64,000 bases of DNA from Thermodesulfobacteriota bacterium (GTDB lineage: Bacteria; Desulfobacterota; QYQD01). The position numbers and the translations under genes were made by a program. The DNA is taken from contig JBFMAZ010000082.1 of NCBI GenBank assembly GCA_040755415.1, positions 148 through 64,147 of the forward strand. Direction: 5' to 3'. The stretch's first letter is position 1, and each line of letters starts with the position of its first letter. Under the pieces are notes generated by a model, which ran no database searches, had not been told where the DNA came from, and was given only the letters and a program-made list of their open reading frames with translations. Shown here in pieces: positions 5,868 to 57,837 of the stretch.

Positions 5868-6075
5868 GACAAATCCCAAAACTTAAAGTTCAAATCAATG
5901 ACCAATGCCCAAGCTCAAATAGTGAAATTTTTGGTTCTCCTAAGGCGAATTTACTGGCATTTGGTTATTTGGATTTCGTTTGGCCTTAGGGCTTTGAACT
6001 TTGACATTTAGATTTCCGATTTGTCCAGACTTAGGATTTCGATACTAGGATTTTTGGGATGGGAGACTTCTTACA
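5868..6075. repeat. AT-rich palindromic intergenic element (family C-like)
   Basis: Long imperfect inverted repeat (caaatcaatgaccaatgcccaa ... ttggatttcgtttgg), similar in style to 17.4 and 24.9 kb. Confidence 0.5.
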
Positions 6076-6106
6076 AGGCCATCAAGTTTGTGGAGGGGAA
6101 ATGCCG

Positions 6107-7760: not shown

Positions 7761-7792
7761 GTACCATTCGACTCCGGTGCGGTTTACTGCAG

Positions 7793-7821
7793 TTAGACGA
7801 AAAAGGCCCCGGATGGTTTAC
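7793..7821 (-). promoter_or_regulatory. candidate ECF-type autoregulated promoter
   Basis: The minus strand reads GTAAACC-15/16 nt-CGTCTAA about 30 nt upstream of the sigma ORF (AAC / CGTC pattern). Confidence 0.3.
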
Positions 7822-7871
7822 AGCAGTTTTAATAACTTGTGCCCCGACCTTATAAAAACATGCATTCATGG

Positions 7872-8528: not shown

Positions 8529-8545
8529 GGCTTCCTCCAGATAAG

Positions 8546-8701
8546 TTAGTGTTCATCCGGAAACTGCCGTTTTCGGATTCACGCTTTCAGCGATTAGCTA
8601 TCAGCAAAAATCTAAAATAAACAACACATTAAGCTGAACGCTGAAAGCTGAGTGCTGAGAGCACATCCAAATTTTTGGGGTTTCGGGATGGGAACGCGTT
8701 A
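8546..8701. mobile_element. MITE-like element, family B termini with AGCTGA(A/T)AGC core
   Basis: TTAGTGTTCATCCGGAAAC ... GTTTCGGGATGGGAACGCGTTAA. The core is about 85% similar to 48856..49042. Confidence 0.65.
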
Positions 8702-8816
8702 ATTGATCTTTGAAAATATAACAAAATATAATCATAAATGAAACCCTAATGCCAGAGTAGGCAGGGCAAAAATAACCTTGAAATTTCTCCAGGTATTAGG
8801 TAGAAGTAGAACAACC

Positions 8817-8892
8817 GGGCGGTTAACTCAGTGGTTAGAGTGCCATCCTCACACGGTGGAAGTCGCAGGTTCGAATCCCGCACCGCCCACCA
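8817..8892 (+). tRNA. tRNA-Val (anticodon CAC)
   Basis: 76 nt. Acceptor GGGCGGT/ACCGCCC, D loop AGTGGTTAG, anticodon stem CCATC/GGTGG with loop CTCACAC, T arm GCAGG-TTCGAAT-CCCGC, encoded CCA. Confidence 0.9.
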
Positions 8893-8906
8893 TGATCAAA
8901 ACAAAA

Positions 8907-8932
8907 GGCCAGTCTTTGGACTGGCCTTTTTT
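8907..8932 (+). terminator. rho-independent terminator after tRNA-Val
   Basis: GGCCAGTC-TTTG-GACTGGCC followed by TTTTTT. Confidence 0.8.
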
Positions 8933-9036
8933 GTCAGAAATACCTTGACAGCACCGGCAACCAGGGCATAGATTTGCAAGTAAGGGATGCAACCTACGTT
9001 CGAACGTGCTAACGTGTAAACGGATAAACGGTTGAT

Positions 9037-9786
9037 ATGGATATAGATAAATTAAAAGATCTGCTCTTGTCAGTGCAGGAAGGCCGGACAGAGGTTGAAG
9101 AGGCCCTCCAGGCCCTGAAAAACCTGCCTTTTGAGGATATGACCTATGCCAAAATCGACCATCACCGGCCCCTGCGTCAAGGGTTTGCAGAGGTAGTCTT
9201 CGGTGAAGGGAAGACCGTCGAACAACTGCTTAAGATCGTTACTTCCATTTACGAACACAGCGACCGGGTTCTGGTCACCAGGATCAGCGAAGACAAGGCC
9301 GCATACATCCGTTCCTCCCTCCCGGCCGCCGATTACTATCCATTGTCCCGGTTATTGATCCTTAAGAAAAAAGAGCCGGAAATTGTCGGTAAAGGGACCA
9401 TCCTGGTCATTTCCGCCGGCACTTCGGATATCTCCGTAGCCGAAGAGGCTTACCTTACGGCGCAGATAATGGGCAACCGGGTGGAGTATCTCTATGATGT
9501 AGGTGTAGCCGGTATCCATCGGCTTCTCAGTCATAAAGAAAAAATTGCCTCTGCTTCTGTATTCATTGTGGTGGCCGGGATGGAAGGCGCCCTACCCAGC
9601 GTAGTGGGCGGGTTGGTAGATAAACCGGTGATTGCTGTACCCACCAGCGTGGGATACGGCACGAGCTTCGGAGGGATTGCGGCCCTTCTGGCCATGCTTA
9701 ATTCTTGCGCGGCAGGTGTAGCCGTAGTCAATATAGACAACGGGTTCGGCGCCGGTTATATCGCCAGTCTTATCAATAGGCTATAG
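9037..9786 (+). CDS. larB: nickel-pincer cofactor biosynthesis protein LarB (PurE-like carboxylase/hydrolase)
   Basis: N-terminus KNLPFEDMTYAKIDHHRPLRQGFAEVVFGEGKT plus PurE-like ISAGTSD...VVAGMEGALPSVVGG. Confidence 0.8.
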   Translation: MDIDKLKDLLLSVQEGRTEVEEALQALKNLPFEDMTYAKIDHHRPLRQGFAEVVFGEGKTVEQLLKIVTSIYEHSDRVLVTRISEDKAAYIRSSLPAADYYPLSRLLILKKKEPEIVGKGTILVISAGTSDISVAEEAYLTAQIMGNRVEYLYDVGVAGIHRLLSHKEKIASASVFIVVAGMEGALPSVVGGLVDKPVIAVPTSVGYGTSFGGIAALLAMLNSCAAGVAVVNIDNGFGAGYIASLINRL

Positions 9787-16452: not shown

Positions 16453-16570
16453 TTGGTTTCCATCCGAAAATCCCCCTGTATCCCCCTTTTCCAAAGGGGG
16501 ATTTCAATATTTCCCCCCTTTAGCAAAAGGGGGGGGTGGGGGGATTTGGTAGTTTTCGGATGGGAACTAA
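16453..16570. mobile_element. MITE-like element, family B (two CCCCCTTT..AAAGGGGG hairpin modules)
   Basis: TTGGTTTCCATCCGAAAA ... TTTTCGGATGGGAACTAA. It starts directly after the mltG stop and is about 95% identical to 27061..27180. Confidence 0.8.
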
Positions 16571-27060: not shown

Positions 27061-27180
27061 TGGTTTCCATCCGAAAATCCCCCTGTATCCCCCTTTTCCA
27101 AAGGGGGATTTCAATATTTTCCCCCCTTTAGCAAAGGGGGGGGGTGGGGGGATTTGGCAGTTTCCGGATGGACACTAACT
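27061..27180. mobile_element. MITE-like element, family B, tandem to the previous one
   Basis: Near-identical to 16453..16570. It ends 27 nt before the fdhA-like ATG. Confidence 0.8.
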
Positions 27181-32014: not shown

Positions 32015-35000
32015 CTAATGTGACGTCTCCTCGATTGTATTATAAATTTCGTCAATTTTTTTCTGTACCTCTATGGTCTTTTGAATTGCAGTGACAATTC
32101 TGCAATAAGTCCGTATCTCGTCAAGGGACAGTATTCGCTCTTTTCTGTCCTTAAGCCATTTATCGCAGACCTGATAACCGCCGATTTGATAAGCCCATAC
32201 ATCAGGGGGAATGCCTTCAAAGTATTGTGCCTTGTTGATGAAAAGGAGACCAAATCCCCCCTCACCCCCCTTTACTAAAGGGGAGATATTGTGAGAAGAA
32301 TCCTTGCTTCCCCTCTTTGGCAAAGAGGGGTTAAGGGGAGATTTTTCGAATAATTCATATCTCAACTTTTCTACCCTGTTATCCCCTTTCCCCTGAAATC
32401 TTGCAATCGGTAAATCGAGGTCAGCCGATTTAAGCAGGTGCAGGTCAACAAGCCTGTTGCCATAGTCGGACATTTTCTCGAACAGCTTGTAGTCCTTTGT
32501 AAACGGCACCCTTGGAAAGTCTATCTTCAGGAACGCTGCATATTTTGTCCTGTAAGTCTCTGAATAAAGAACGGCATAAATGTAATAGAAGATTTCCTCA
32601 GGGGAAGGAGTTTTCTTATAGGCTTTTGATAATTCATCAATAACCTTGGCAGATAAGTTAGTCTTTTTTACTCCATAATCTGCCTTCGGTTCAAACAGCA
32701 TCAATACGCCGCCAAAGGACCGCTTCTTTTTATCCTTGACTTGATAGATATAGAGAGGAAAAAGATACGACCGTTCTCGTGTCTCTAACGAGACGGTACA
32801 GTCGTTAATAATGCTGTTCGTACATAACGCGTGTTTAAATTCTGCATTGATCTGGCGATTTGTGATCACCCCTAAGTTCTCTTTCAACATATGCTGCATT
32901 ACTTCTTTCCGGGATCGCTCAATGACTGCGTCGTGGTAGAAAATCCACCGCTCATCGAATGGGCGATACAATATCTTTGTAATGGCTTGATCCCAGTCAG
33001 GATCTTTGACGACGCGCTCCCTCGCATCTCTCAGTGTCCAGTTAGTTTTATCTTTCAGTTTATAAGTCTGTTGTATTATTTCATCAGGTAATTTCTTGTC
33101 CCTGAACTGCAATATTCTTCTCCGCAGTCGATCCCGATCAAAATCAATAACGAATTCATCGCGTGAGGTTACGATCCCCACACTGCTCACCGGAAAGATA
33201 TCGGTAATCTTCATGTGCCTTTCATAAACAGATGACAACTTTTCATCGCGGGGGAAGAACAGATAGAATTCGGATTTAGGGGAAAGCCTCTTCCATTTGG
33301 TTGTTGTAATATCGTGCTTATTAAGCCAATTGTATTTCTTTTCTCTGAGCCCCCATAGTTCGGAATGGAAAACTTTTGACCCGCCTCTTAACCTCCCTTT
33401 GCCAAGAGGGGTTTTCTTGATAAAGACAGCAATAGCAACTCCTTGCTGAATATCAAAGACATTCTCATCTCTTGACCCGTCAGGGCCTTTTTCCTTCTTG
33501 AGGCTGTTGCCGTGCAGGTCAAGGATATACATCACGTCGAAACTCCGCATCAGCGACTGACGCATCCCCCTAAAAGTCGGATTATCGAGATAGCTGTGGT
33601 TTGTAATAAACCCGAGGACCCCTTGGCCGGCCTGATCGATCTTCCACTGGGCAAAACGGATGAACTTTACATAATCGTCCTGAAGCCACTTGGGGTTCTT
33701 TTCATTAAGCGGTCTCCCATCGACTTGATGGTACGCCTTAATCTCGCTTGAGATCCAGTCACCGATATTTGACGAATGTCCCGAATAGGGCGGGTTTCCC
33801 AGAATCACGAGTATTGGTTGTTCTTTCTTCACCAGACCGGCCAGATGAGACTCTTCAGACAATGAGGCCATCCCGGGCAGTTCTGTTTGAGCCACCTCTT
33901 CCATTTCGAGCGTATTGGTAAGATAAAGTTTCACCCGGTCATCCCTCTGTAACCTGTACTCTAATTCCTCCAGAAGGAAAGACATCTTCAGATGCCCGAC
34001 GGCATAGGGGGCCATCATCAATTCAAAGGCATAGAGGTTTTTCAGGATATGTTCTTTTATAAAATTCTCCCTGCCTCCCTCTCCGTATTTGGAAACAAAT
34101 TCATCAATTGCAAGTTTTGCCGCCTCTGCCAAAAAGGCAAGCGTTCCTGCCGCAGGGTCTAAGACAGTCACGTTCTTATCTGCAAATCCATCAGGTTTAT
34201 TGAAATGCCCTTTCAGAATGTTATGTAAGGAGCGGACTATGTAGGAAACCACAGGCTCAGGCGTGTAATACACACCCCTCATCTCCCTTGTCTTCGGGTC
34301 ATACGCGGCAAGGAAGGTTTCGTAGAAATGAACGATAGGGTCTTTCCCTTTGCCCTCATGGAAAAATTGATGAAGTATCTTGCTCACATCCGTGAGGGAA
34401 AGGATTTCCGATATATCATCAACAATCCATTCCATCTGCTGGGGGAGGGCGCCCAATGAAACAAACTGGAAAACGTCTCTCAGTATTCCAATTGTTTGGG
34501 GTATGTTGTGATAGGCAAGTTTCCTATTGAAGCCATTTTCTGAACGAGTCCTGGCTGCAAATAGGCCGTAGGTGATAGTCTGTGCGTAAAGGTCCGAGAA
34601 TTCGTCTTCCGTAAGGCCGCTGATAAGATAATCCTTAAAAGCCTTGTAAAATCCCCTGATAAATCCCTTGCCTGCACTCTGTTCTTCCCTCAGTTCCTGC
34701 GCTATAACCTCATCCTTTAAAAAGCGTGTCCTTTTGGCAAGTTCAACGGCAAGGTTCTTTGCGTCATATACTTTCGGTAACGAAAAGGAAAAGAACTTTC
34801 CCAGCAGTTGCAGGAATTCAGGTTCCTTTTCGACAGGTGGGGTAGTTTTCAGCTTATGAACTACGTATGGCCTTCCGACAATGACTTTATCCGTTCTGAC
34901 ACCGTTATGGTAAAGCCTGAACTCAAAGAAATTGGTAAGAATAACATTCGGAAAAGTATGCAAGTATCTCTTTAGCTGCTCTGTTTCCTCTATCCTGTCA

Positions 35001-35302
35001 AGATTTTCAATGGTAGGGTCTTTAGCCTCAATGTATCCCGTGATATGTTGTTTGCCGTCCCACACTCTGAAGTCCGGATTACCTGCTTCCGTCTTTTTGG
35101 GAAGAATCGTTATATGAAAATTTTTCTTTCCGGTTAAGCCGCAATACCCATCAAGAAGAGATTTCAGGACCGGGTAATAGCTTTCTTCCCTTGCATCCCC
35201 TCGTGTGCCGGCATCGGCTATCTGTTTTAAATAGTCTTTAAGCATGACCAACCTATCGATGATTTCCGGGCCGGCGCTCGTAGCCTCGTTGATTCTCAAC
35301 AT
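32015..35302 (-). CDS. single-chain type IIG/IIL (MmeI-like) restriction-modification enzyme: PD-ExK nuclease + N6-adenine methyltransferase + C-terminal specificity domain
   Basis: PDFRVWDGKQHITGYIEAKD (D-X9-ExK as in the MmeI family), AdoMet motif VLDPAAGTLAF, catalytic NPPY (ILGNPPYSGH). C-terminal IGGYQVCDKWLKDRK is typical of type ISP/IIG specificity domains. Confidence 0.8.
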   Translation of the reverse strand: MLRINEATSAGPEIIDRLVMLKDYLKQIADAGTRGDAREESYYPVLKSLLDGYCGLTGKKNFHITILPKKTEAGNPDFRVWDGKQHITGYIEAKDPTIENLDRIEETEQLKRYLHTFPNVILTNFFEFRLYHNGVRTDKVIVGRPYVVHKLKTTPPVEKEPEFLQLLGKFFSFSLPKVYDAKNLAVELAKRTRFLKDEVIAQELREEQSAGKGFIRGFYKAFKDYLISGLTEDEFSDLYAQTITYGLFAARTRSENGFNRKLAYHNIPQTIGILRDVFQFVSLGALPQQMEWIVDDISEILSLTDVSKILHQFFHEGKGKDPIVHFYETFLAAYDPKTREMRGVYYTPEPVVSYIVRSLHNILKGHFNKPDGFADKNVTVLDPAAGTLAFLAEAAKLAIDEFVSKYGEGGRENFIKEHILKNLYAFELMMAPYAVGHLKMSFLLEELEYRLQRDDRVKLYLTNTLEMEEVAQTELPGMASLSEESHLAGLVKKEQPILVILGNPPYSGHSSNIGDWISSEIKAYHQVDGRPLNEKNPKWLQDDYVKFIRFAQWKIDQAGQGVLGFITNHSYLDNPTFRGMRQSLMRSFDVMYILDLHGNSLKKEKGPDGSRDENVFDIQQGVAIAVFIKKTPLGKGRLRGGSKVFHSELWGLREKKYNWLNKHDITTTKWKRLSPKSEFYLFFPRDEKLSSVYERHMKITDIFPVSSVGIVTSRDEFVIDFDRDRLRRRILQFRDKKLPDEIIQQTYKLKDKTNWTLRDARERVVKDPDWDQAITKILYRPFDERWIFYHDAVIERSRKEVMQHMLKENLGVITNRQINAEFKHALCTNSIINDCTVSLETRERSYLFPLYIYQVKDKKKRSFGGVLMLFEPKADYGVKKTNLSAKVIDELSKAYKKTPSPEEIFYYIYAVLYSETYRTKYAAFLKIDFPRVPFTKDYKLFEKMSDYGNRLVDLHLLKSADLDLPIARFQGKGDNRVEKLRYELFEKSPLNPSLPKRGSKDSSHNISPLVKGGEGGFGLLFINKAQYFEGIPPDVWAYQIGGYQVCDKWLKDRKERILSLDEIRTYCRIVTAIQKTIEVQKKIDEIYNTIEETSH
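32245..32350. mobile_element. family B hairpin element inserted in frame inside the RM gene
   Basis: ACCAAATCCCCCCTCACCCCCCTTTACTAAAGGGG...CCCCTCTTTGGCAAAGAGGGG. It is translated as FEKSPLNPSLPKRGSKDSSHNISPLVKGGEGGFG. Confidence 0.7.
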
Positions 35303-37610: not shown

Positions 37611-38270
37611 ATGGATGCCGAGCTTACCCCAAGACAGACCTTCTTTAACCTCCCACCGGACAAGCAGCAGCGCGTCCTGGAGGCGGCCGTTCAGGAGTTT
37701 TCCGAGCGAGGCTACCAGCAGGCCAGCATTAACACCATAGTCTCCCGCGTGAATATCGCCAAGGGTTCCATCTACCAGTACTTCGACAGCAAAAAAAGCC
37801 TGTTTCTCTTTATCTTCAATCAGGGCATTGCCTTGGTACGGCAAATGCTGAAGCATGTCAAAAAAGAGAGTCAGGGAGAAGATTTTTTCACGCGGGTAAA
37901 GAAATCCCTTATGGCCGGCGTTGAGTTCATAGATAAGCATCCGGCCCTCTACCGGGTTTATCTCCGCATCCTTTTCGAGCGCGATTCTCCTCTACGGGAA
38001 GATTTTCTGCAAACGATAAGGCTTTTCTCCCGCGAGTACATCCTCTCCCTTTTGGAAGAGGGGCAGGCAAGGGGTGAGGTCAGAAAAGACCTGGACCCCG
38101 TGTTGGCTGTGTTTATTCTAGACGCGGTATTAGATAAATTCCTGCAGAACTATGCCCTGCCCTATCTTGATCCGGCCCTGGAGTTAAACAAGGAGAAAGG
38201 CCTGGAAGGAAAAATCGACAGCATCGTAACCTTGCTGCGGCAAGGATTCGCCGCAGCAGATGGGAGTTAA
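37611..38270 (+). CDS. TetR/AcrR family transcriptional regulator
   Basis: N-terminal HTH FSERGYQQASINTIVSRVNIAKGSIYQYF. Confidence 0.85.
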   Translation: MDAELTPRQTFFNLPPDKQQRVLEAAVQEFSERGYQQASINTIVSRVNIAKGSIYQYFDSKKSLFLFIFNQGIALVRQMLKHVKKESQGEDFFTRVKKSLMAGVEFIDKHPALYRVYLRILFERDSPLREDFLQTIRLFSREYILSLLEEGQARGEVRKDLDPVLAVFILDAVLDKFLQNYALPYLDPALELNKEKGLEGKIDSIVTLLRQGFAAADGS

Positions 38271-39423
38271 CATGGACATGGACCGGTCGAAAGGAGAGCC
38301 GTGGTGGCAAGAGATACGCGGCAAGGTCGAGGCCGGTGAAAGGTTATCCTTTGAAGACGGGCTGAGGCTTTACCAATCCAATGACCTTCTGGCCATCGGC
38401 ACCCTGGCCAATGCGGTACGCCGCCGTCTGAACGGCAATAAGGCATTTTACATATACAATCAACATATCAACTATTCCAATATCTGCGTCAATCGCTGCC
38501 GTTTTTGTGCCTTCGGCAAGGACAAGGGCGATCCGGCCGCGTATGAAATGTCCACTGAGGAGATAGTCGGCAAGATTCAAAAACGCCGCCATGAGCCGAT
38601 AACCGAGGTGCACATCGTAGGCGGGATACATCCTGACCTGCCTTATCGCTATTATGTGGAGATGATCCGGGAGATCAAAAAGGCACGGCCGGAGATCCAT
38701 ATACACGCCTTTACCGCCGTAGAAATCGCCCATCTGGCCAAGATCTCCGGACAAAGTATATCCGATACGCTCTGCGACCTGCGCGAGGCTGGGCTAGGTT
38801 CGCTTCCGGGCGGCGGCGCGGAGGTCTTCAGCCCCCGCATAAGGGAACGCCTCTGTCCCAAAAAACTATCTCCGGAAGGCTGGTTGGAAGTGGCCAAGAC
38901 CGCGCATCGCCTCGGCATCAAGTCCAACGCCACCATGCTTTACGGGCATATCGAGTCTGCGGAAGAAAGGGTCAGCCATCTTCTGTCCTTGCGCCGGACC
39001 CAGGATGAGACCGGCGGCTTCATGGCCTTTATTCCCCTGGCCTTTCATCCGCGAAACACGGAGCTTTCCGACCTCTCTAACACCACCGGTTTTAATGACC
39101 TTAAAAATATCGCCATCGCCCGTCTCCTGCTCGATAATTTTCCGCACATCAAGGCCTACTGGGTAATGATCGGCCCCAAACTGGCCCAGATCGCCCTTAA
39201 TTTTGGCGCAGATGATCTGGATGGAACGATCATCGAGGAAAAGATCACCCACATGGCCGGTGCGGAGACGGCCCAGAGGATGACCCGCGCAGAACTCCAG
39301 CGTTTAATCCATGAGGCGGGATGTACGCCGATAGAACGGGACACCCTGTACAATGCTATCCTAAATGTTACGCAGTCAGCGAATAACGACCAGCCTGGCA
39401 AGAAAGCTTTTGCTGAAAGCTGA
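38260..39423 (+). CDS. mqnE: radical SAM aminofutalosine synthase (MqnE-like)
   Basis: NQHINYSNICVNRCRFCAF cluster motif, 387 aa. The MqnE versus MqnC assignment rests on NxHIN versus NRNIN signatures recalled from the families. Confidence 0.7.
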   Translation: MGVNMDMDRSKGEPWWQEIRGKVEAGERLSFEDGLRLYQSNDLLAIGTLANAVRRRLNGNKAFYIYNQHINYSNICVNRCRFCAFGKDKGDPAAYEMSTEEIVGKIQKRRHEPITEVHIVGGIHPDLPYRYYVEMIREIKKARPEIHIHAFTAVEIAHLAKISGQSISDTLCDLREAGLGSLPGGGAEVFSPRIRERLCPKKLSPEGWLEVAKTAHRLGIKSNATMLYGHIESAEERVSHLLSLRRTQDETGGFMAFIPLAFHPRNTELSDLSNTTGFNDLKNIAIARLLLDNFPHIKAYWVMIGPKLAQIALNFGADDLDGTIIEEKITHMAGAETAQRMTRAELQRLIHEAGCTPIERDTLYNAILNVTQSANNDQPGKKAFAES

Positions 39424-39496
39424 CTGTCGAAGATTCGCCGGTATTGTGGCGAGCTGATAGCTAAATGCTTATGTACATATTCATCGAGGCCCGGCA

Positions 39497-40552
39497 ATGA
39501 ATTACGATTTGTGGCGCAGAAAAATAGAACATAGCGAAAGGTTCTCGAAGGCAGAGGCCCTGGAACTTTACAGCCATCCGGATATCCTTGTCCTTGGAGA
39601 ACTGGCCGACCTGAAACGCCGCCTACTCAACCCCAAAAGGCTGGTCACCTACATCATTGACCGCAACATCAATTATACGAATATATGCATATCGGGATGC
39701 CGGTTCTGCGCTTTCTTTAGAGAAGACGGGGCACAGGGAGGCTATGTCCTGACCAGGGAGGAGCTGGCACGGAAAATAGAGGAGACCCTCTCCCTGGAAG
39801 GCGTACAGATACTCCTTCAGGGCGGCTTGCACCCTACCCTGCCCTTTTCTTTTTATGAAGAGATGCTTGCCTTTATTAAAAGTGAGCATCCCATACATAT
39901 ACATGGCTTTTCGCCTCCGGAGATTGTGCACATGTCCCGGCAGTCCGGGCTGGGTATCGGCGATGTACTGCGACGGCTGCGCGCGGCCGGGCTCGACTCT
40001 ATACCGGGCGGAGGCGCGGAGATATTGGTGGACAGAGTAAGACAAGCCGTATCTCCACGGAAATGTTCAGCAGATGAATGGCTGGCAGTTATGGAAGAGG
40101 CGCATCGGCAAGGAATTAAAACTACGGCCACGATGATGTTCGGCCATGTAGAGACTATCGAAGAGCGCATTGAACACCTTATGCGTCTTCGTGAGCTTCA
40201 GGATAAGACTCAGGGGTTCACGGCCTTTATTCCCTGGCCTTTCCAGCCGCATAATACCCGCATAAACGTTGTTTCCATGGGAGGCGTCGAATACCTCCGC
40301 ATGCTGGCTGTTTCCCGGGTCGTCCTGGACAATATCCCCAATCTACAGGCCTCCTGGGTTACCCAGGGGCCTAAGGTGGCGCAGGTGGCCCTTGCCTTCG
40401 GCGCCAACGACTTCGGCAGTACCATGATCGAAGAAAATGTAGTGGCGGCTACCGGCGTCTCTTATCAGTTGAGCGAAAAGGAAATCAGGCGCATCATTGC
40501 CGACGCCGGTTATGAGCCGGCCCGCAGAAATATGGCCTATGAATTGCTTTAA
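39497..40552 (+). CDS. mqnC: radical SAM cyclic dehypoxanthinyl futalosine synthase (MqnC-like)
   Basis: DRNINYTNICISGCRFCAF motif, 351 aa, paralogous to the preceding gene. Confidence 0.7.
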   Translation: MNYDLWRRKIEHSERFSKAEALELYSHPDILVLGELADLKRRLLNPKRLVTYIIDRNINYTNICISGCRFCAFFREDGAQGGYVLTREELARKIEETLSLEGVQILLQGGLHPTLPFSFYEEMLAFIKSEHPIHIHGFSPPEIVHMSRQSGLGIGDVLRRLRAAGLDSIPGGGAEILVDRVRQAVSPRKCSADEWLAVMEEAHRQGIKTTATMMFGHVETIEERIEHLMRLRELQDKTQGFTAFIPWPFQPHNTRINVVSMGGVEYLRMLAVSRVVLDNIPNLQASWVTQGPKVAQVALAFGANDFGSTMIEENVVAATGVSYQLSEKEIRRIIADAGYEPARRNMAYELL

Positions 40553-41861
40553 GCCATCAGCCATCAGCTATCAGCTATCAGCCCGGGAGGTAGCTGAAGG
40601 CTTTAGCCTGCGTAAGTTATCAGCAAACAGCGATCGTCTGCCAGCAGGCAGTAGGCAAATAAAAATCCACCGTGCCAAATGGGTCTTTCCTGTATCTTCA
40701 CTGCCGGTTAGTGACGGCGCGGTTGTGGTTGCCGATGGCCGCATAGAGGCCGTGGGCCGGTTTAAGGACCTCAGGGAAGCCTATAAAGGCGATGTGGTTG
40801 ATCATGGAGAGGTAGGCATCCTGCCGGCCCTGGTCAACGCCCATACCCATCTTGAACTCGCCGCCCTGCGAGGACGTCTGTCTGGAAAGGATGGTTTTGT
40901 TAATTGGATTAGGGTGCTCATCAAAGTGCGGGAGGACATACCGCCGGCAGAAATAGAAAAGGCAATAACTAATGAACTCGCGGCCATGCACCAGCAGGGC
41001 GTCGGCCTCATTGGCGATGTAGGTAATACCCGGATGGCTTATGAGTTATGCCAAAAACAAAAGATAAAGACTGTTTTTTTTCGCGAGTTCCTGGGCTTTA
41101 ACCGGGCGAAGACGGCAAAGGCCAAGGAAATGCTGGCAGAAGCCGGTAAATCGCATGAGACCGACAATGCATTTCATGTGGCTGCCCATGCCCCATACAC
41201 CGTCTCTGCCGAACTGTTTTCAGCCCTCAAGTCGTGGGCTAATAAGCACGGGAAGATGCTCTCCGTGCACCTGGGTGAATGCTTGGAGGAGCAAGAACTC
41301 CTTGCGCATGGAAACGGATCATTGAGAGACCTGCTCAGTGAGCGTTCAGCCTGGGATGATGATTTTATTCCGCCAGGGAAGAGCACAGTGGCCTATCTTG
41401 ATAAACTCGGCGTCCTGGACAATAACACGGTCTGTGTACATCTCGTGCACCTGTCAGAGGAAGATATGGCAATTCTGGCTACCCGCAGGGTAAAATGCTG
41501 CCTCTGCCCCAGGAGTAATCTCTTTCTCAACGTCGGCTTCCCGAAGGTGGAAAAGATGCTTACCTATGGGCTGTACCCGGCCCTGGGAACAGATAGCCTG
41601 GCCAGCAATGAGAGCCTCAGCATCTTAGAAGAGATGGCGGCCATCAGAAAACACATGCCCGGCCTGGCCCCGGAAAAAATACTGGAGATGGCCACCCTGA
41701 ACGGCGCCCGGGCCCTTGGCCGGGAAGACCGGCTGGGCAGTCTGACGTCGGGAAAGGAAGCCGGGATGATCTCTGTCCCAGCCGGCGGAGAAGGCAGCCG
41801 GGAAGCGCTTGAAGGCATAATGGATCGTGCCGCAACTATACCGGTACGTTGGATACAATGA
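40539..41861 (+). CDS. amidohydrolase family protein (possible aminofutalosine / nucleoside deaminase); start uncertain
   Basis: VNAHTHLEL metal-binding motif, HLGE, VHLVH, GTDSLASN. There is no ATG/GTG/TTG near the conserved N-terminus IKIHRAKWVFPV. Confidence 0.7.
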   Translation: MNCFKPSAISYQLSAREVAEGFSLRKLSANSDRLPAGSRQIKIHRAKWVFPVSSLPVSDGAVVVADGRIEAVGRFKDLREAYKGDVVDHGEVGILPALVNAHTHLELAALRGRLSGKDGFVNWIRVLIKVREDIPPAEIEKAITNELAAMHQQGVGLIGDVGNTRMAYELCQKQKIKTVFFREFLGFNRAKTAKAKEMLAEAGKSHETDNAFHVAAHAPYTVSAELFSALKSWANKHGKMLSVHLGECLEEQELLAHGNGSLRDLLSERSAWDDDFIPPGKSTVAYLDKLGVLDNNTVCVHLVHLSEEDMAILATRRVKCCLCPRSNLFLNVGFPKVEKMLTYGLYPALGTDSLASNESLSILEEMAAIRKHMPGLAPEKILEMATLNGARALGREDRLGSLTSGKEAGMISVPAGGEGSREALEGIMDRAATIPVRWIQ

Positions 41862-41951: not shown

Positions 41952-42800
41952 ATGGAACAGATTAGAATTGGCAAATTCAGTTTTATTAACACCAGCCCTA
42001 TATATTACCCACTCGAACACATAGTAGGCCTAAACGGCTTTCAGGTTATAGAGGGATCCCCTTCGGAACTAAACGCCCGCTTTTTCCGAGGGGAATTGGA
42101 CATCAGCGTCATATCCTCACAGGAATACGGTCTCCATGCGGAAAAATACTTCCTCCTCCCTGAACTGGCCATTGTCTCGCAGGGAACGGTCAAAAGCGTG
42201 CTCTTTTTCAGTAAGTATCCGCTTAAGGCCCTCAGCGGACGCCGCATCCTTATAACCGAGAAGTCACAAACCTCGGTAGCCCTCCTGAAGATTATCTTGG
42301 AAGAATTTTATGAGGTATTTCCCATTTATGAGACAGGCGACCTGTCCGCGAAAGACGTCCATTCCCGGGAGGTCGCCGGCTTTCTGGCTATCGGCGACGA
42401 GGCCCTCAGGTTTCGCATCGAGAGTCAGGAGCCTTATATTATTGACCTCGGCGAGACCTGGAAGAAGTTTGCCGGCCTGCCTTTTGTATATGCAGTGTGG
42501 GCAGTGCGGCGGGAATTCTATAATCAGTTTCCGCAGAAGGTATGGGAGGCCTGCCGCCTCCTTAAAGAGTCACGGGATAAGGGCCTTAAGACCCTGGAAA
42601 AGATCGGAGGCCGTTTTGCTTCACATATACCCATGTCCAAGGAGGCCTGTCTGGCCTACTTGCGAACCCTGTGTTTTGACTTAACCCCGGAGGCGCTGGA
42701 GGGAATGAGGCTGTTCTTCCGCTATCTGGTCAAACGCGGGGAATACCCTTCTCCGGTGAACATAGAATTTGTACCGCAACTAGACGGGATGACGGCCTGA
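41952..42800 (+). CDS. mqnA: chorismate dehydratase MqnA-like (VitK2 biosynthesis family)
   Basis: IRIGKFSFINTSPIYYPL...PSELNARFFRGELDISVISSQEY pattern. Confidence 0.7.
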   Translation: MEQIRIGKFSFINTSPIYYPLEHIVGLNGFQVIEGSPSELNARFFRGELDISVISSQEYGLHAEKYFLLPELAIVSQGTVKSVLFFSKYPLKALSGRRILITEKSQTSVALLKIILEEFYEVFPIYETGDLSAKDVHSREVAGFLAIGDEALRFRIESQEPYIIDLGETWKKFAGLPFVYAVWAVRREFYNQFPQKVWEACRLLKESRDKGLKTLEKIGGRFASHIPMSKEACLAYLRTLCFDLTPEALEGMRLFFRYLVKRGEYPSPVNIEFVPQLDGMTA

Positions 42801-43697
42801 ATGTCAGATGAAACACTCGTGTCTCAAAGAGACACAAAGAACAATGGAGAAAATCCCCCCTCACCCCCCTTTAATAAAGGGGGGGATACATTAAGTCCTC
42901 TTTTGAAAAAAGGGGGAGAGCCGTCAAATCCCCCTTTGGGAAAAGATGGAGGCCCATCAATTCCCCCTTTGGAAAAGGGGGATACAGGGGGATTTTCTGG
43001 TGAAAAGAAAGCCTTCGTAGAAAAGAAATTTTCATCCATCACCCCGCGCTACGATTTCCTTAATTCCTTGCTGAGTCTAAATATTGACCGCTACTGGCGA
43101 TGGGTGACCGCCCGTGAGTTAGACAATTATACGGGGGGACCAATTCTCGACCTCTGCGCCGGCACACTGCCCTTAAGCCTTAGCATAGCCGGACGCAGGC
43201 CCGAACGATATGTGTTGGCCCTCGATCTCTGCCGGGATATGCTGGCCTACGGTCGCAACAGACTAAATGGCCGGGTAGCAGGCCGGCAAATTATCCCGAT
43301 TTGTGCAGACGGAGAAGAAATACCCTGTTGCGATAATAGCTTTTCCGGGATTACCGTGGCCTTTGGAGTGCGTAACCTGAGCAATCTGGATAAGGGCCTT
43401 AAGGAGATGTGGCGCGTCCTCCGGCCCGGGGGGAAACTGGTCATCCTTGAGTTTTCTCGCCCTAAAAATCCGGTCATGCGGACGCTTTATTTTTTCTACC
43501 TCATGCGGATCCTGCCATATATCGGCGGCCGGATATCTGGCGACGAAGAGGCTTACCGCTATCTGGCGAATTCTATCCGCCTCTTTTACTCGCCGGAAGA
43601 ATTAGCGCAAAAAATGAAAAATACCGGTTACGTAAAGGTAACCTATCGCCCGCTCACGGCCGGTATAGTGACTTTATATACTGGAGAAAAGCCTTGA
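42801..43697 (+). CDS. menG: demethylmenaquinone methyltransferase (UbiE/MenG) with repeat-derived N-terminal extension
   Basis: Conserved core starts at KKFSSITPRYDFLNSLLSLNIDRYWR. SAM motif ILDLCAGT. About 65 aa upstream of the core are encoded by a family B element. Confidence 0.85.
   Translation: MSDETLVSQRDTKNNGENPPSPPFNKGGDTLSPLLKKGGEPSNPPLGKDGGPSIPPLEKGDTGGFSGEKKAFVEKKFSSITPRYDFLNSLLSLNIDRYWRWVTARELDNYTGGPILDLCAGTLPLSLSIAGRRPERYVLALDLCRDMLAYGRNRLNGRVAGRQIIPICADGEEIPCCDNSFSGITVAFGVRNLSNLDKGLKEMWRVLRPGGKLVILEFSRPKNPVMRTLYFFYLMRILPYIGGRISGDEEAYRYLANSIRLFYSPEELAQKMKNTGYVKVTYRPLTAGIVTLYTGEKP
42819..43009. mobile_element. family B element (three hairpin modules) inside the menG reading frame
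   Basis: GTGTCTCAAAGA...GGGGGATACAGGGGGATTTTCTGGTGAAAAG. Its right end matches the left end of 16453..16570 in inverted orientation. Confidence 0.75.
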
Positions 43698-43759
43698 TAT
43701 TCACCGCGGAGAACATAAAGAAAACATCTCAAATCTGAAATTTGAGATTTGAAATTCTT

Positions 43760-43921
43760 GTAACACTTTAGCTGTTTGAAAAGAGCTAGTCGTCCAGAAA
43801 ACGGCGCCTCGAAAATCCCCCTTAATCCCCCTTTTTCAAAGGGGGAAATGTTTCTCCTCCCTTTGGAAAAGGGAGGTTGGGAGGGATTTTAAAATACTTT
43901 TTCAAACAGCTAAACTGATAC
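43760..43921 (-). mobile_element. 162-bp MITE (family A) with 8-bp TSD AAATTCTT
   Basis: By base-by-base comparison it is identical to the reverse complement of 57167..57328. It is flanked by AAATTCTT at 43752..43759 and 43922..43929. Confidence 0.9.
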
Positions 43922-43986
43922 AAATTCTTCTCTTTGCGTGCTCTGCGCTAAATATTACATTCCGAGCGCTAAAAGGGAGGTTCGCT

Positions 43987-45429
43987 TTGGGCTATAAGAA
44001 TCTGCAGGAATTTATACGCCTTCTGGAAAAAGAAGGAGAACTAAAAAAAATTACCGAGCCGGTCAGCCCCTATCTGGAGATTACTGAGATCACCGACCGC
44101 GTCTGTAAAAAAGGCGGGCCTGCCCTCCTCTTCACCAATGTCGTCGGTCATGACATGCCGGTCCTGATGAACGCCTTTGGATCATACCGACGCATGTGCC
44201 TGGCCCTCCAGGTAGGCGACTTTAATGAGATCGGAAAAGATATCCTGAACTTCCTGGAGGCCGAAGCGCCGGATACCCTAATCAAAAAGCTCAAGATGAT
44301 ACCAAAGCTTAAACGGCTGGCCGATATGTTTCCGAAGATGGTGAGCAAGGCCCCCTGCCAGGAAGTGATAATAAAAGATAATATTGACCTTAGGCTTCTT
44401 CCGGCGCTACACTGCTGGCCTAAGGATGGCGGACGTTTTATCACCCTCCCTCTGGTCTTTACCAAACACCCGGAGACCGGCGTGCGTAACTGCGGGATGT
44501 ACCGCATACAGGTCTTTGACGCCGGCACCACGGGTATGCACTGGCATACCCACAAGGGCGGGGCCCAGCATTACCGCATAGCCGAAAAACGCGGCGAGCG
44601 GCTGGAAGCGGCGGTAGCCATCGGCGCAGACCCGGCTACAACTTATGCCGCCACGGCCCCTCTGCCGGAAGACATCGACGAGATGGTCTTCTCCGGCTTT
44701 CTCCGCTCCGAACCGGTCGAGATGGTGCAGTGCCTTACCGTCGATCAGCAGGTGCCGGCCGAGGCGCAGATTATCCTCGAGGGCCATGTAGAACCGGGCG
44801 AAAGACGCGTGGAAGGCCCCTTCGGTGACCATACCGGCTATTATTCACTGGCGGATAAGTATCCGGTCTTTCATGTCACCTGTATCACCCATCGTAAAGA
44901 GGCCGTCTATCCGGCCACCATCGTGGGCCGCCCGCCCATGGAAGATTGTTATATGGCCAAGGCCACAGAGCGCATATTCCTGCCGCTGATAAAAAAACAG
45001 CTCTCGGAGATTGTGGATATGAACCTACCCCTGGAAGGGGTTTTCCATAATCTGGCCTTTATCTCTATCGATAAGCGCTATCCCGGACACGCCCGGAAGG
45101 TGATGCACGCCCTGTGGGGGATGGGCCAGATGATGTTCACCAAGATCATCGCCGTCTTTGACCGGGAAGTCGATGTCCAGGACCTGTCACAGGTCCTCTG
45201 GCGTATCGGCAACAACGTCGATCCGCGGCGGGATACGGTTATTACCGATGGGCCGGTCGATGCCCTGGATCATGCCTCACCCCTGCCCCACTATGGCGGG
45301 AAGATGGGCATCGATGCCACGCGCAAGTGGCCGGAGGAGGGATTTGAGCGTGACTGGCCGGAGGTCATCGAGATGGATGAGGCCGTGAAAAAGAAAATCG
45401 ATGCCATCTGGGGAAAGCTGGGTCTATAG
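43987..45429 (+). CDS. UbiD-family (prenyl-FMN-dependent) decarboxylase, menaquinone biosynthesis
   Basis: GGPALLFTNV, NCGMYR, HWHTHKGG, GPFGDHTGYY motifs. TTG start with GGGAGG RBS. Confidence 0.9.
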   Translation: MGYKNLQEFIRLLEKEGELKKITEPVSPYLEITEITDRVCKKGGPALLFTNVVGHDMPVLMNAFGSYRRMCLALQVGDFNEIGKDILNFLEAEAPDTLIKKLKMIPKLKRLADMFPKMVSKAPCQEVIIKDNIDLRLLPALHCWPKDGGRFITLPLVFTKHPETGVRNCGMYRIQVFDAGTTGMHWHTHKGGAQHYRIAEKRGERLEAAVAIGADPATTYAATAPLPEDIDEMVFSGFLRSEPVEMVQCLTVDQQVPAEAQIILEGHVEPGERRVEGPFGDHTGYYSLADKYPVFHVTCITHRKEAVYPATIVGRPPMEDCYMAKATERIFLPLIKKQLSEIVDMNLPLEGVFHNLAFISIDKRYPGHARKVMHALWGMGQMMFTKIIAVFDREVDVQDLSQVLWRIGNNVDPRRDTVITDGPVDALDHASPLPHYGGKMGIDATRKWPEEGFERDWPEVIEMDEAVKKKIDAIWGKLGL

Positions 45430-45472
45430 TGAATTTATCTGCATCGGGCAGACAAAGGGCGATAAAACACCC

Positions 45473-45662
45473 ATGTCTCAAAGAAATATAAAGAACAAAG
45501 AAAACAATCCCCCCTTACCCCCCTTTAGTAAAGGGGGGGATATTTTAAGCCCCCCCTTGAAAAAAGACGGGGGTCTGTCGATTCCCCTTTTGGGAAAGAA
45601 TGGGCACCCATCAATTCCCCCTTTGGAAAAGGGGGATACAGGGGGATTTTCTGGTGAAAAAA
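45473..45662. mobile_element. family B element (three hairpin modules) inside the ubiX reading frame
   Basis: ATGTCTCAAAGA...GGGGGATACAGGGGGATTTTCTGGTGAAAAAA, colinear with 42819..43009. Confidence 0.75.
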
Positions 45663-46228
45663 TACAGAAACGTTACATCGTGGCCTTGACCGGGGCGAGC
45701 GGCATGCCCTATGCCGTATCCCTCTTACAGAAATTAGCGGCAAAAAATGTGGAGATACACGGCCTCGTGTCTGCGGCCGGGGCCCAGGTATTGAAGCTGG
45801 AAACCGGCCTTTCTACCTCAGAGGTGGGCCGGTATATGACCAGGCACTACGACGAAAAAGACTTTGCCGCGCCGGTAGCCAGCGGGTCTTTCCCCCACGA
45901 CGGCATGATTATTATCCCTTGCACCATGGGCACCCTGGGCGCCATAGCCAACGGTATATCAAATAACCTTATCCATCGGGCGGCGGATGTGACCTTAAAG
46001 GAAGGCCGAAGGCTCTTATTGATCTTGCGGGAGACCCCGCTGAACCGGATACACATAAGCAATATGCTGCGCCTGGCGGAGGCCGGAGCGACCATCATGC
46101 CGGCCATGCCCGGATTTTATCATCAACCCGCGAGCGTTGATGATTTGGTCGTTACCTTCGTGGACAGAATCCTGGATGTCCTCGGCCTGCCCGATCCAAA
46201 GGCCAAAAGGTGGGGTATCGACTCATGA
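45473..46228 (+). CDS. ubiX: UbiX-family flavin prenyltransferase with repeat-derived N-terminal extension
   Basis: Core RYIVALTGASGMPYAV...IIPCTMGTL. The first ~60 codons are a family B element. Alternative starts are 45401 (ORF track) or an internal GTG. Confidence 0.8.
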   Translation: MSQRNIKNKENNPPLPPFSKGGDILSPPLKKDGGLSIPLLGKNGHPSIPPLEKGDTGGFSGEKIQKRYIVALTGASGMPYAVSLLQKLAAKNVEIHGLVSAAGAQVLKLETGLSTSEVGRYMTRHYDEKDFAAPVASGSFPHDGMIIIPCTMGTLGAIANGISNNLIHRAADVTLKEGRRLLLILRETPLNRIHISNMLRLAEAGATIMPAMPGFYHQPASVDDLVVTFVDRILDVLGLPDPKAKRWGIDS

Positions 46229-47073
46229 TACGAAAGACCCATACCTTCCTGGAGATGATTAAATTCGAGCACACCATCTTTGCCCTGCCCTTTGCCTTCA
46301 TAGGGGCCTTTCTGGCGGCGGGCGGCGTGCCGGCTCCGGCAAAATGTCTCTGGATACTTTTGGCCATGGTCGGGGCGCGCACGGCCGCTATGGGCTTTAA
46401 CCGTATAGTCGATCTCCCTTATGACCGCAAAAATCCCCGCACCGCAGGCCGGGCCTTGCCGCAAGGCATGATAAAGGTCAAAGAGGCCCGGCTCTTTGTG
46501 ATCCTGGCCTCCCTGCTCTTCTTCTTCGCGGCCTATAAGCTGAACCGGCTGACCTTTATGCTGTCCCCCCTGGCCCTGGCCACAGTCCTTGCTTACTCTT
46601 ACACCAAACGATTTACCTGGTTGTCGCATATATTCCTGGGTCTGGCCCTGGGCATTGCCCCTGCCGCCGGATGGATAGCTGTGAAAGGCAGTTTCGATGC
46701 CGCGCCTCTTATCCTGAGCGCCGGGGTCATATTTTGGGTGGCAGGTTTTGACACCATTTATGCCTGTATGGATTTTGAGTTTGATCGCCGCGAAGGGCTG
46801 CACTCGATACCCTGCAAATTCGGCAAAGAAAGGGCACTTGCCTTTGCCGTCGGGTTCCATATCCTGGCTTTTATGTTTTTTCTCTATACCGGCATTATGG
46901 CCGGATTAAGGTGGGTCTATTATGCGGGCATCGCCCTGACGGCGATGGCTATGGTGCTGCAACATATATTCGTCACGCCCAAGGACCTTTCTAAAATAAA
47001 CCTCTCCTTCTTCACCATGAACGGCATAATCAGCATCACCCTCTTTCTGGCTACCTGGGCCGCACTTTCCTGA
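46210..47073 (+). CDS. UbiA-family prenyltransferase (MqnP / 4-hydroxybenzoate polyprenyltransferase-like)
   Basis: NRIVDLPYDRKNPRT and DFEFDRREGLHS Asp-rich motifs; polytopic membrane protein. Confidence 0.85.
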   Translation: MGYRLMIRKTHTFLEMIKFEHTIFALPFAFIGAFLAAGGVPAPAKCLWILLAMVGARTAAMGFNRIVDLPYDRKNPRTAGRALPQGMIKVKEARLFVILASLLFFFAAYKLNRLTFMLSPLALATVLAYSYTKRFTWLSHIFLGLALGIAPAAGWIAVKGSFDAAPLILSAGVIFWVAGFDTIYACMDFEFDRREGLHSIPCKFGKERALAFAVGFHILAFMFFLYTGIMAGLRWVYYAGIALTAMAMVLQHIFVTPKDLSKINLSFFTMNGIISITLFLATWAALS

Positions 47074-56500: not shown

Positions 56501-57837
56501 GTGAAGATACCCTTTTCATACAGTCTCCGCAATCTTTGGACACGCCGCCTTACCACCGTTCTTACCATAGCGGGCATGGCCCTTGTTGTTTTTGTATTCT
56601 CAGCGATTCTCATGCTTGCCGAGGGGCTGCAAAAGACCTTGGTGGATACCGGCTCATATGATAACGCGGTGATAATCCGCAAGGCGGCGGGATCAGAGGT
56701 GCAGAGCGGGGTGGAGCGTCCGCAGGCTTCCATAATCGAAACCCAGCCGGAAGTGGCTATAGGCGCAGACGGCAAACGCCTGCTGGTAAAGGAATTGGTC
56801 GTCCTTATCGTTCTACCTAAACGCGGAACTGATAAACCGGCCAATGTCGTCATAAGGGGAATCTCCGGGAGTTCAATGCTTCTTCGGCCGCAGGTAAGAT
56901 TGACGGAGGGGCGCATGCCGAGACCGGGCTCTTCAGAGATAATCGCCGGACAGAGCGTGGCCAAGAGGTTTAAGGGAGGAGGCATCGGGGAGACGCTCCG
57001 CTTCGGCATGAGGGACTGGACCGTGGGAGGGATATTTGACGCAGGGAATACCGGCTATGCCTCAGAGATATGGGGCGATGTGGATCAACTCATGCAGGCC
57101 TTCCGGCGTCCTGTCTATTCTTCGATCTTGTTCAGGCTGCGTGATTCTTCGGAATTTGAAAGATTCGTATCAGTTTAGCTGTTTGAAAAAGTATTTTAAA
57201 ATCCCTCCCAACCTCCCTTTTCCAAAGGGAGGAGAAACATTTCCCCCTTTGAAAAAGGGGGATTAAGGGGGATTTTCGAGGCGCCGTTTTCTGGACGACT
57301 AGCTCTTTTCAAACAGCTAAAGTGTTACAAAGATTCAAGGCGCGCATCGAAAGCGACCCCCGGCTCACGCTTGAGGCATTGCGTGAGACACGGTACTATG
57401 AAAAACAGTCGGAGATGATGGCAAAATTCCTCCGCATCCTCGGCATTACTCTGACGTTGATATTTTCTCTCGGCGCCGTTATCGGCGCAATGATTACCAT
57501 GTACGCCGCGGTTGCCAACAGAACCGATGAAATCGGCACCATGCGCGCACTCGGTTTCCAGCGACGGAGTATTCTGGCAACCTTTGTCATGGAGTCACTG
57601 CTCCTTGGATTTATCGGGGGTTTTATCGGACTGTTTTTCGCCTCTTTCTTGCAGCTTTTCACCATTTCCACCATGAACTTCCAGACTTTTTCCGAGCTTG
57701 CCTTTTCATTTTCGCTGACCTTCGGGATCATTTACAAGGCTATGGCCTTTGCGCTGATAATGGGCTTTGTAGGCGGTGTTCTTCCCGCAGTCAGGGCGGC
57801 GAGGATGAGTATTGTGGAGTCATTGAGGGCAAGTTGA
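56501..57837 (+). pseudogene. second FtsX/MacB-type ABC permease, interrupted by a 162-bp MITE
   Basis: ORFs 56501..57178 and 57322..57837. Removing the element and one TSD copy restores ...SSEFERFKARIESDP... in frame. Confidence 0.8.
57167..57328 (+). mobile_element. 162-bp MITE (family A) inserted in the permease gene, TSD AAAGATTC
   Basis: Termini GTATCAGTTTAGCTGTTTGAAAAAG / CTTTTCAAACAGCTAAAGTGTTAC. Duplicated AAAGATTC at 57159..57166 and 57329..57336. Confidence 0.9.

Follow-up and report, generated by a model that had tools for sequence, protein, structure and literature searches.

INTRODUCTION

Palindromic repeats that lie in frame inside protein-coding genes are established for Rickettsia in the form of the Rickettsia palindromic elements, or RPEs (Ogata et al. 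[quoted passage not shown] Here, we describe a comparable element in a Thermodesulfobacteriota bacterium (GTDB lineage Bacteria; Desulfobacterota; QYQD01), within a stretch of 64,000 nucleotides that we refer to as the window (assembly GCA_040755415.1, contig JBFMAZ010000082.1, forward-strand positions 148 to 64,147; coordinates below are those of the window unless another locus is named). A repeat of about 190 bp, which we term family B, interrupts the 5′ coding end of the menaquinone biosynthesis gene menG/ubiE, and ubiX, 2.6 kb downstream, has another copy at its 5′ end. The explanation that we favor, and hold with good if not full confidence, is that an RPE-like mobile palindromic element entered menG and is read through from the ancestral ATG, its peptide being tolerated as a disordered N-terminal insertion.

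An earlier annotation of the same stretch (here, the original prediction) had pointed to Rickettsia as the precedent for in-frame palindromes; the precedent holds, but the review cited above shows that such insertions are not confined to that genus. Since MITE fusions are known outside Rickettsia, the novelty is a new family in a new phylum and not a new phenomenon, and our literature search found no paper joining MITEs, Deltaproteobacteria, and in-frame insertion.

RESULTS

The menG reading frame carries 63 additional codons

The menG/ubiE open reading frame (ORF) spans positions 42801-43697 of the plus strand and encodes 298 amino acids (aa); its translation, which opens MSDETLVSQRDTKNNGENPPSPPFNKGG...GFSGEKKAFVEKKFSSITPRYDF, agrees with the peptide given in the original prediction. 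Residues 69-297 provide a full-length match to the Pfam profile PF01209 (profile positions 5-233 of 233; 190.8 bits against a cutoff of 20.1; E = 3e-56), and orthology is indicated by 88-91% identity to proteins named ubiquinone/menaquinone methyltransferase from metagenome-assembled genomes (MAGs), with MqnA, CofH/MqnC-type proteins, UbiD, UbiX, and UbiA as neighbors. By profile match and gene neighborhood, the product is assigned to the UbiE/MenG (COQ5) family as a putative demethylmenaquinone methyltransferase. Its methyltransferase core, running from EKKAFVEKKF to the stop codon, occupies 43002-43697 on the plus strand, as delimited by PF01209, ortholog identity, the ratio of nonsynonymous to synonymous substitution rates (dN/dS), and an AlphaFold2 model.

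Searching 5.8 billion proteins yielded thousands of MenG/UbiE homologs, of which 120 were listed. The ortholog comparison proposed in the original prediction finds the N-terminal extension absent from all 120 matches listed, which are 235-256 aa long and cover 73-80% of the query; the three closest orthologs among the matches listed (88-91% identical, 235 aa) come from MAGs labeled Thermodesulfobacteriota or “Deltaproteobacteria.” Aligned with the orthologs, which read MSNE-EKK(A/V)FVEKKF, the window protein has 63 additional residues between MSDE and EKKAFVEKKF. The nearest relative, MAG Yes70-07 (GCA_030017815.1, locus L014), preserves the empty site, in which ATGTCAAACGAA is joined directly to GAAAAGAAAGCC: the junction TAA ATG TCA AAC GAA/GAA AAG AAA GCC TTC GTA of Yes70-07 corresponds to ATG TCA GAT GAA (189 nt) GAA AAG AAA GCC TTC GTA in the window. 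The menG site is also empty at L001 (GCA_030693185.1), L002, L003, and L013 (GCA_964435205.1), and no record of the exact 298-aa protein was found.

The net insertion in menG amounts to 189 nucleotides (nt), i.e., 63 stop-free codons (e.g., 42813-43001) placed after codon 4. Just one of the six frames of family B is stop-free, and it is the frame in use in the menG and ubiX copies; with that frame and an addition of exactly 63 codons, menG stayed open. Homology to the ubiX copy and to copies in other MAGs, together with the ortholog alignment and the empty site, places the menG copy (copy 1) at about 42808-43003 on the plus strand, with the 3′ end ...ATTTTCTGGTGA. The central claim of the original prediction, a palindromic repeat read in frame as the N-terminal part of MenG, is supported by the orthologs that lack the insert, the empty site, the 63 stop-free codons, the retained ATG, the lack of a suitable start beyond the element, and purifying selection on the core. 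The borders given there, 42819-43009, lie 6-11 nt off at each end.

The 5′ module of the element contains a hairpin, GTGTCTC-AAA-GAGACAC (42819-42835, plus strand), that folds at -10.7 kcal/mol, opens with an in-frame GTG, and shows compensatory changes (TGTCGC/GCGACA) in the copy within an aldehyde:ferredoxin oxidoreductase (AOR) gene. The palindromic core (42848-42998, plus strand) follows, in which, according to the minimum-free-energy structure, outer arms AGAAAATCCCCCC and GGGGGATTTTCT enclose modules of the CCCCCTTT..AAAGGGGG type; its inverted repeat (I2) has 36-nt arms that are 81% complementary. Where three hairpin modules had been predicted, we find four, of which two are intact (42865-42883 and 42963-42981) and two are degenerate (42896-42917 and 42929-42950). 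The motif CCCCYTT..AARGGGG forms 12 distinct hairpins in the 64-kb window, against 0.06 expected, and the RNA of 42771-43040 folds at -100.7 kcal/mol (z = -4.55). No hairpins of this type occur in L001-L003, the three closest MenG orthologous loci checked (~28 kb together), in keeping with a mobile repeat that expanded in one lineage. As for a possible terminator function of the menG copy on the sense strand, the scan flags antisense sites alone there and a weak sense-strand site in the ubiX copy.

Translation of menG is expected to pass through the element

The ancestral menG ATG (42801-42803, plus strand) abuts the stop codon of mqnA in the junction TGAATG, and orthologs start at the same position with MSNE or MPRE, at TAAATG or TGAATG junctions. 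Upstream, the frame is shut by the in-frame TGA at 42798, which is the mqnA stop. The in-frame ATG, GTG, and TTG codons are ATG 42801, GTG 42819, and TTG 42903, 42936, and 42969, all three TTGs lying within the element; the next, TTG 43068, is already inside the conserved MenG core, in agreement with the earlier statement that no such codon separates element and core. Between the two, we found neither a canonical start nor a near-cognate codon preceded by a Shine-Dalgarno (SD) sequence at a suitable distance, so translation must read through the element. A downstream noncanonical start was also sought: the sole well-spaced combination of an SD-like sequence and a GTG (GGGGGA, 7 nt, GTG 43000) is out of frame and meets a stop after 6 codons, and the same is true of the ubiX copy, so this candidate was discarded. 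At the 3′ ends of both family B copies (43000-43020 and 45654-45689), the SD-like GGGGGA and the out-of-frame GTG 7 nt on open a mini-ORF of 6-11 codons that overlaps the start of the enzyme core, and this arrangement possibly acts as a decoy initiation site.

The most likely start of menG is ATG 42801, which the original prediction overlooked, and not GTG 42819, the in-frame codon that it noted. Were translation to begin within the element, whether from GTG 42819 or from any of the three TTGs, the ancestral ATG would be bypassed and the element would be translated only in part. All four codons are in frame, and the ubiX position equivalent to GTG 42819 is an ATG that probably serves as a start, but GTG 42819 itself has no SD (+0.4 kcal/mol) and falls in the first stem strand of the 5′ hairpin. 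G-rich runs (GGGGGA, GGAGG) 5′ of the TTGs do pair with the anti-SD sequence at -7 to -9 kcal/mol; they lie, however, about 16 nt from the TTGs, too distant for normal initiation, and the TTGs are buried in strong hairpin stems. Given also that the ancestral ATG and its stop-start junction are conserved, we regard an internal start as improbable.

A second copy probably provides the start codon of ubiX

At the 5′ end of ubiX, copy 2 of family B (45462-45657, plus strand) aligns to 42808-43003 without indels at 84% identity and lies in the same frame as copy 1; in both genes, the family B frame runs on into the downstream enzyme. The UbiX flavin prenyltransferase core (KRYIVALTGASG...; PF02441, E = 4e-44) is located at 45668-46228 on the plus strand. 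Orthologs of UbiX are 186-211 aa long and start 3-8 residues before the KRxIVAxTGASG strand. At L001, the ubiX site is empty and the ubiX ATG overlaps the ubiD stop (ATGA); in the window, the ancestral ATG is lost (CTATAGTGAA), and the in-frame starts are limited to ATG 45401, inside ubiD, and ATG 45473 (45473-45475, plus strand), the counterpart of GTG 42819 within the element. This ATG of the element is the probable start of ubiX and, to judge from these codons, the sole usable one in the window.

An orthologous ubiX insertion with the same upstream spacer is present in Yes70-07 (the contigs at L014 and L015 end within it, and that at L004 begins within it) and at L013. In Yes70-07, an upstream in-frame ATG is followed by an in-frame TAA, so only the element ATG can start UbiX there. 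The UbiX of L013 (P0124, 218 aa) starts MSQRNIKSKENNPPSPPFGKGGKGGFSGEKIQKRYIV; the insertion at this locus keeps the ATG and the frame and is shorter than the window form by exactly 99 nt (33 codons).

The distribution of the ubiX insertion (present in the window, Yes70-07, and L013 and absent from L001) conflicts with the gene trees, which give ((window,(Yes70-07, L001)), L013). So does the sequence of the copies: those of the window and L013 have common derived changes (GAAATAT, CAAAGAAAAC) and are identical at 93% of 118 compared bases, and the Yes70-07-type copy is consensus-like. To account for this, one needs lateral exchange or else a loss in L001 together with gene conversion in Yes70-07. 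A recombination patch behind the identity of the window and L013 elements is unsupported, as the flanking blocks of 30 codons show no clear rise in synonymous identity. The 5′ hairpin is weak in two copies whose first hairpin codon probably serves as the start, the ubiX copies of the window and L013 (0 and -2 kcal/mol); selection against the hairpin at a start codon would fit these two cases but fails for the ubiX copy of L015, which retains the hairpin.

Family B belongs to a set of nested repeats

Families A, B, and C share the arm AAAATCCCCC..CCCCCTTTnnnAAAGGGGG..GGGGGATTTT, a core present at 8 window loci. Family A, which has GGTTTCCATCCGAAAA as its terminal inverted repeats (TIRs) and is flanked by direct repeats of 5 bp, is represented by an intergenic copy at 16455-16567 (flanks TAATT) and by a copy at 27062-27175 (flanks TAACT). 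Over 36 nt, its arm matches that of family B in inverse orientation with 100% identity, a likeness that points to recent activity or homogenization. The resemblance of the family B termini to those of family A (CCATCCGAAAA), to which the original prediction had drawn attention, is partial, and what the families share is instead the inner arm AAAATCCCCC / GGGGGATTTT. Family C, in which TIRs GTAACACTTTAGCTGTTTGAAAA surround the same G5/C5 core (inverted repeats I4 and I5), lies in the menG-ubiD spacer (43758-43923) and at about 5624-5786 and about 57169-57329; it is absent from the menG-ubiD spacer of the closest relative. Palindromic repeats occupy three consecutive operon junctions in the window (mqnA-menG, menG-ubiD, and ubiD-ubiX).

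The 5′ module of family B is asymmetric (TGAAACACnnRTGTCTCAAAGAGACACAAAGAACAATG). At L006 (4170-4345) and in lpxK at L018 (1300-1480), the 5′ module and 3′ end of family B enclose a different palindrome (of the GTCATTGCGAGG...CGGAATGAC type in L006 and another in lpxK), so the unit seems to behave as a carrier with an exchangeable core. The L006 copy has another frame open toward the ORF that follows it. In the nine copies compared, the 5′ junction reads ...TGAAACAC and the 3′ junction ...ATTTTCWGRTGA, followed by variable sequence, and the whole unit is asymmetric (5′ TGAAACAC..., 3′ ...CWGRTGA), with inverted arms in its core. Nearly all copies have TGA or TGAA at both junctions. These bases may be a 3-4 bp duplication of a preferred target or may belong to the element; comparison with the menG empty site slightly favors an insertion of 189 nt that left no duplication. 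With a length of about 190 bp, family B has no room for a transposase of its own. Rfam has no family for the element, and Pfam has none for its peptide.

Copies elsewhere were sought by a profile search with the element peptide, a procedure that finds the open frame alone, and the frame fidelity across copies therefore carries an ascertainment bias. The search produced 26 hits, 6 of them eukaryotic low-complexity false positives. In-frame copies occur in the C-terminal parts of AOR and MoeA, at the Fur C terminus, in a ferredoxin, in LpxK (two insertions) and the adjacent GT9 glycosyltransferase, and in two glycosyltransferases (GTs) that lie six genes apart on one NCBI MAG contig, one of which has two copies. 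Those with a taxon label come from Thermodesulfobacteriota MAGs and the others from unlabeled metagenome contigs. MenG, UbiX, AOR, MoeA, LpxK, GT9, GT, and Fur all have the element in one and the same frame (..NPPSPPFxKGG...IPPLEKGDTGGFSGEK). As in a MITE family, copies are dispersed over nonhomologous sites, and filled sites have empty counterparts (menG and ubiX). Exact-pattern scans recovered only one locus from the public genome collection (L004, the orthologous ubiX copy) and one relevant locus from the metagenome collection (L006, plus three chance AT-rich matches). Loci L009 (1230-1830) and L011 (260-850) are identical upstream of a family B copy, where both have a decayed AOR gene with an internal stop, and then continue into the C termini of AOR and MoeA, respectively; this is probably an assembly chimera across the repeat, the other possibility being real recombination.

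Selection on the host enzymes and on the inserted peptide

The MenG and UbiX cores are under purifying selection. For the menG core, dN/dS is 0.14 between the window and Yes70-07 (mqnA, 0.135), and for the UbiX core, it is 0.07-0.11 in all pairs, including the window versus L013, at a synonymous divergence (dS) of about 1.2, and other insertion-bearing lineages. Within the element, 7 synonymous and 22 nonsynonymous codon changes separate the two window copies, and the ubiX copies of the window and L015 differ by 1 synonymous and 4 nonsynonymous codons over their common 5′ part; by these counts, the element's amino acid sequence is without visible constraint. Preserved in the element are the open frame and lengths and indels in multiples of three (189 and 99 nt). 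In an AlphaFold2 model based on the aligned orthologs, residues 1-65 have a predicted local distance difference test (pLDDT) score of <50 and are followed by a confident methyltransferase fold, and the menG insert is thus predicted to be a disordered tail. In Escherichia coli, structure within the 13-nt ribosome footprint represses initiation (PMC5435973); the first hairpin of the menG copy begins at +19 of the ORF, beyond the footprint measured in that species.

These data bear on whether the elements have been co-opted, such that the palindromes at the three operon junctions set mRNA stability or translation, or that a common N-terminal peptide gives MenG and UbiX a localization or interaction property. 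Three consecutive junctions of one menaquinone operon do carry elements, and the ubiX insertion has persisted over dS >1, with element ends that are 93% identical between the window and L013, where about 55-60% of the amino-acid-conserved codons in the flanking genes are identical. Indels in multiples of three would also suit such a role, but survivorship alone predicts the preservation of the frame, and the peptide changes at an about neutral rate (7:22 between the copies and 1:4 between the window and L015). The L013 form, moreover, is without half of the peptide, the closest relatives lack the menG and spacer copies (and L001 also the ubiX copy) with the same mqn genes intact in all, and the same element resides in unrelated genes. 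We consider co-option unlikely. Similarly doubtful is a more elaborate proposal, in which family B would be adapted to coding DNA, with a frame that yields a harmless disordered peptide, a preference for TGA(A)/stop-start junctions, and an ATG of its own that replaces the host start, and in which the three junction copies would have been recruited to set the translation of MenG, UbiD, and UbiX or the stability of their mRNA, or to provide a common N-terminal tag to MenG and UbiX.

It is less probable still that the insertion has crippled menG, making it a young pseudogene or a strongly attenuated gene, with another class I methyltransferase elsewhere doing the methylation. The insertion is recent, as a relative at dS of about 0.33 lacks it, so purifying selection on menG since that event cannot be isolated, and a very stable RNA structure lies beside the start. 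The pseudogene that the original prediction had named as a contrary outcome is nonetheless not what the sequence suggests: the 298 codons are intact, with neither stops nor frameshifts, the core has the low dN/dS given above, equal to that of neighboring genes, and the window-specific amino acid changes in MenG number 5, against 6 for L001, so that there is no lineage-specific excess. The analogous insertion in ubiX is, furthermore, demonstrably compatible with long-term function. That the repeat was misplaced into menG during assembly is scarcely credible, for although the contigs at L004, L014, and L015 break inside the ubiX copy and L009/L011 appear chimeric across a copy, both menG flanks are contiguous and precisely in frame, the menG copy is unique and only 84% identical to that in ubiX, and the ubiX insertion is confirmed in three independent assemblies.

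Gene context and a further in-frame copy in the window

The menG gene lies in a menaquinone cluster of the futalosine type. Two CofH/MqnC-type radical S-adenosylmethionine (SAM) genes (38260-40552) are followed by an amidohydrolase gene, by mqnA (PF02621; 41952-42800) directly 5′ of menG, and then, beyond menG, by ubiD (43987-45429), by ubiX, which ends at 46228, and by ubiA (46210-47073). Read from TTG 40497, the amidohydrolase ORF (40497-41861) encodes 454 aa and runs into the radical SAM gene before it; the orthologs have 378-419 aa, 35-76 aa fewer, and translation probably begins at a codon further 3′. The menG and ubiD genes are adjacent in the window and at L013, unlike at L001, where about 6.5 kb of defense-type genes (3468-9329; bacterial gasdermin, PhdYeFM/ParE, and DUF433/DUF5615) separates them.

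A core-only copy, also in frame and encoding about 33 aa (...SPLNPSLPKRG...SPLVKGGEGGFG...), is situated at about 32247-32350 on the minus strand, within a type ISP restriction-modification gene (32015-35302, 1095 aa), where it falls in a loop of the encoded Type_ISP_C domain. The Pfam match to this gene uses 378 residues for 338 profile positions, and plasmid-borne homologs from Nostoc and Synechocystis are, in alignment, without about 33 residues at this site. A PDB sequence search with the C terminus of the protein returned no alignment across the insertion.

DISCUSSION

The observations are most readily explained by insertion of a mobile element followed by toleration of its peptide. A short nonautonomous element (family B, about 190 bp), made up of a 5′ module that is asymmetric and forms a small hairpin, a nested G5/C5 core common to at least two other families in this genome, and a short 3′ end ...ATTTTCWGRTGA, would have inserted in menG after the split from the closest sequenced relative. 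Ribosomes would start at ATG 42801, probably coupled to the termination of mqnA at the abutting TGA, and the product would be a MenG protein in which 63 disordered residues, rich in Pro, Gly, and Lys, separate residue 4 from the first helix of the methyltransferase fold. This extension is most likely tolerated, whether neutral or mildly costly, rather than functional. The ubiX gene appears to have gone one step further, in that the old ATG decayed and the element's own ATG (45473) would now start the protein. Because the junctions are tight (TGAATG and ATGA) and have no intergenic space, a junction-seeking repeat survives there only in frame, and this survivorship explains the pattern without invoking function.

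Several points weigh against this explanation. We infer translation through the element, as we do its coupling to mqnA, the neutrality of the insertion, and the mechanism of transposition, and the unconstrained peptide, which fits a tolerated insertion, gives no positive evidence of being made. ATG 42801 is preceded by no clear SD (-4.1 kcal/mol), a trait also of the orthologs, and the very stable RNA of the element (-100.7 kcal/mol) could attract RNase III or slow ribosomes. The menG insertion is known from one assembly. The coordinates given for the ends of the element are approximate, any target-site duplication is putative, and profile scans of the 30 largest window ORFs and of other window ORFs revealed no transposase.

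Toleration of an in-frame palindromic element, as favored here, would extend the RPE phenomenon, i.e., selfish palindromic DNA inside essential protein genes, to a free-living anaerobic member of the Thermodesulfobacteriota, a sulfate-reducer-type bacterium, and would do so with a clean pair of filled and empty sites. In the ubiX copy, a mobile repeat has probably replaced the start codon and N terminus of a conserved enzyme and has been kept over dS >1. The phylum, the nested modular build, and this long-lived donation of a start codon are the noteworthy features of the system. The elements also matter in practice for annotation, since they lengthen or disrupt gene calls in MAGs (contigs that end in the repeat, C-terminal fragments called from the element ATG, and possible chimeras), and recognition of the family would improve the annotation of these lineages. 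The insertions also constitute a natural experiment in how much disordered sequence the N termini of MenG and UbiX tolerate.

Among known systems, palindrome-associated elements derived from IS200/IS605 and REP/RAYT systems have asymmetric ends with a subterminal hairpin. Family B is like them in its asymmetric ends, its subterminal hairpin, its lack of a long TIR across the unit, and the TGA/TGAA at both junctions; neither a Y1 transposase nor a RAYT was found among the window ORFs scanned. Small dispersed repeats of cyanobacteria, reportedly the subject of work by Elhai and colleagues in Genome Res in 2008, are said to be nested in MITEs, with a short palindromic unit recurring in several larger families and in genes. 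They differ from the family B core in sequence and phylum, and the likeness serves as a lead only. REP classes are described in PMC3733652.

The gene fusions of ERIC/IRU, BOX, Coxiella QMITE1/2, and Anabaena MITEb/MITEe are closer in behavior, at least in the accounts of them given in PMC10969869, PMC5896051, and Delihas 2007 (cited there): these, too, are ORF-bearing repeats that form in-frame extensions or internal insertions and stable RNA hairpins. Family B differs from all of them in sequence family and taxon, and whereas the QMITE insertions in functional Coxiella genes are described as being at 3′ ends only (PMC5896051), two family B insertions are at 5′ ends and others are internal.

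The RPEs offer the nearest parallel. Both they and family B are short (about 100-200 bp), palindromic, multicopy, nonautonomous repeats; both lie in frame in unrelated housekeeping genes, where one open frame gives a family-specific peptide; and both insert at termini or loops, in a manner compatible with the fold of the host protein. A few dozen copies of family B are documented here, and we liken it to the RPEs by behavior alone and do not file it as an RPE; a relationship in sequence was neither expected nor seen. The hosts are unlike, in one case an obligate intracellular alphaproteobacterium and in the other a free-living Thermodesulfobacteriota bacterium, and family B, unlike the RPEs, is modular and nested, with one G5/C5 core in three carrier families and with one copy that appears to have taken over the start codon of its host gene.

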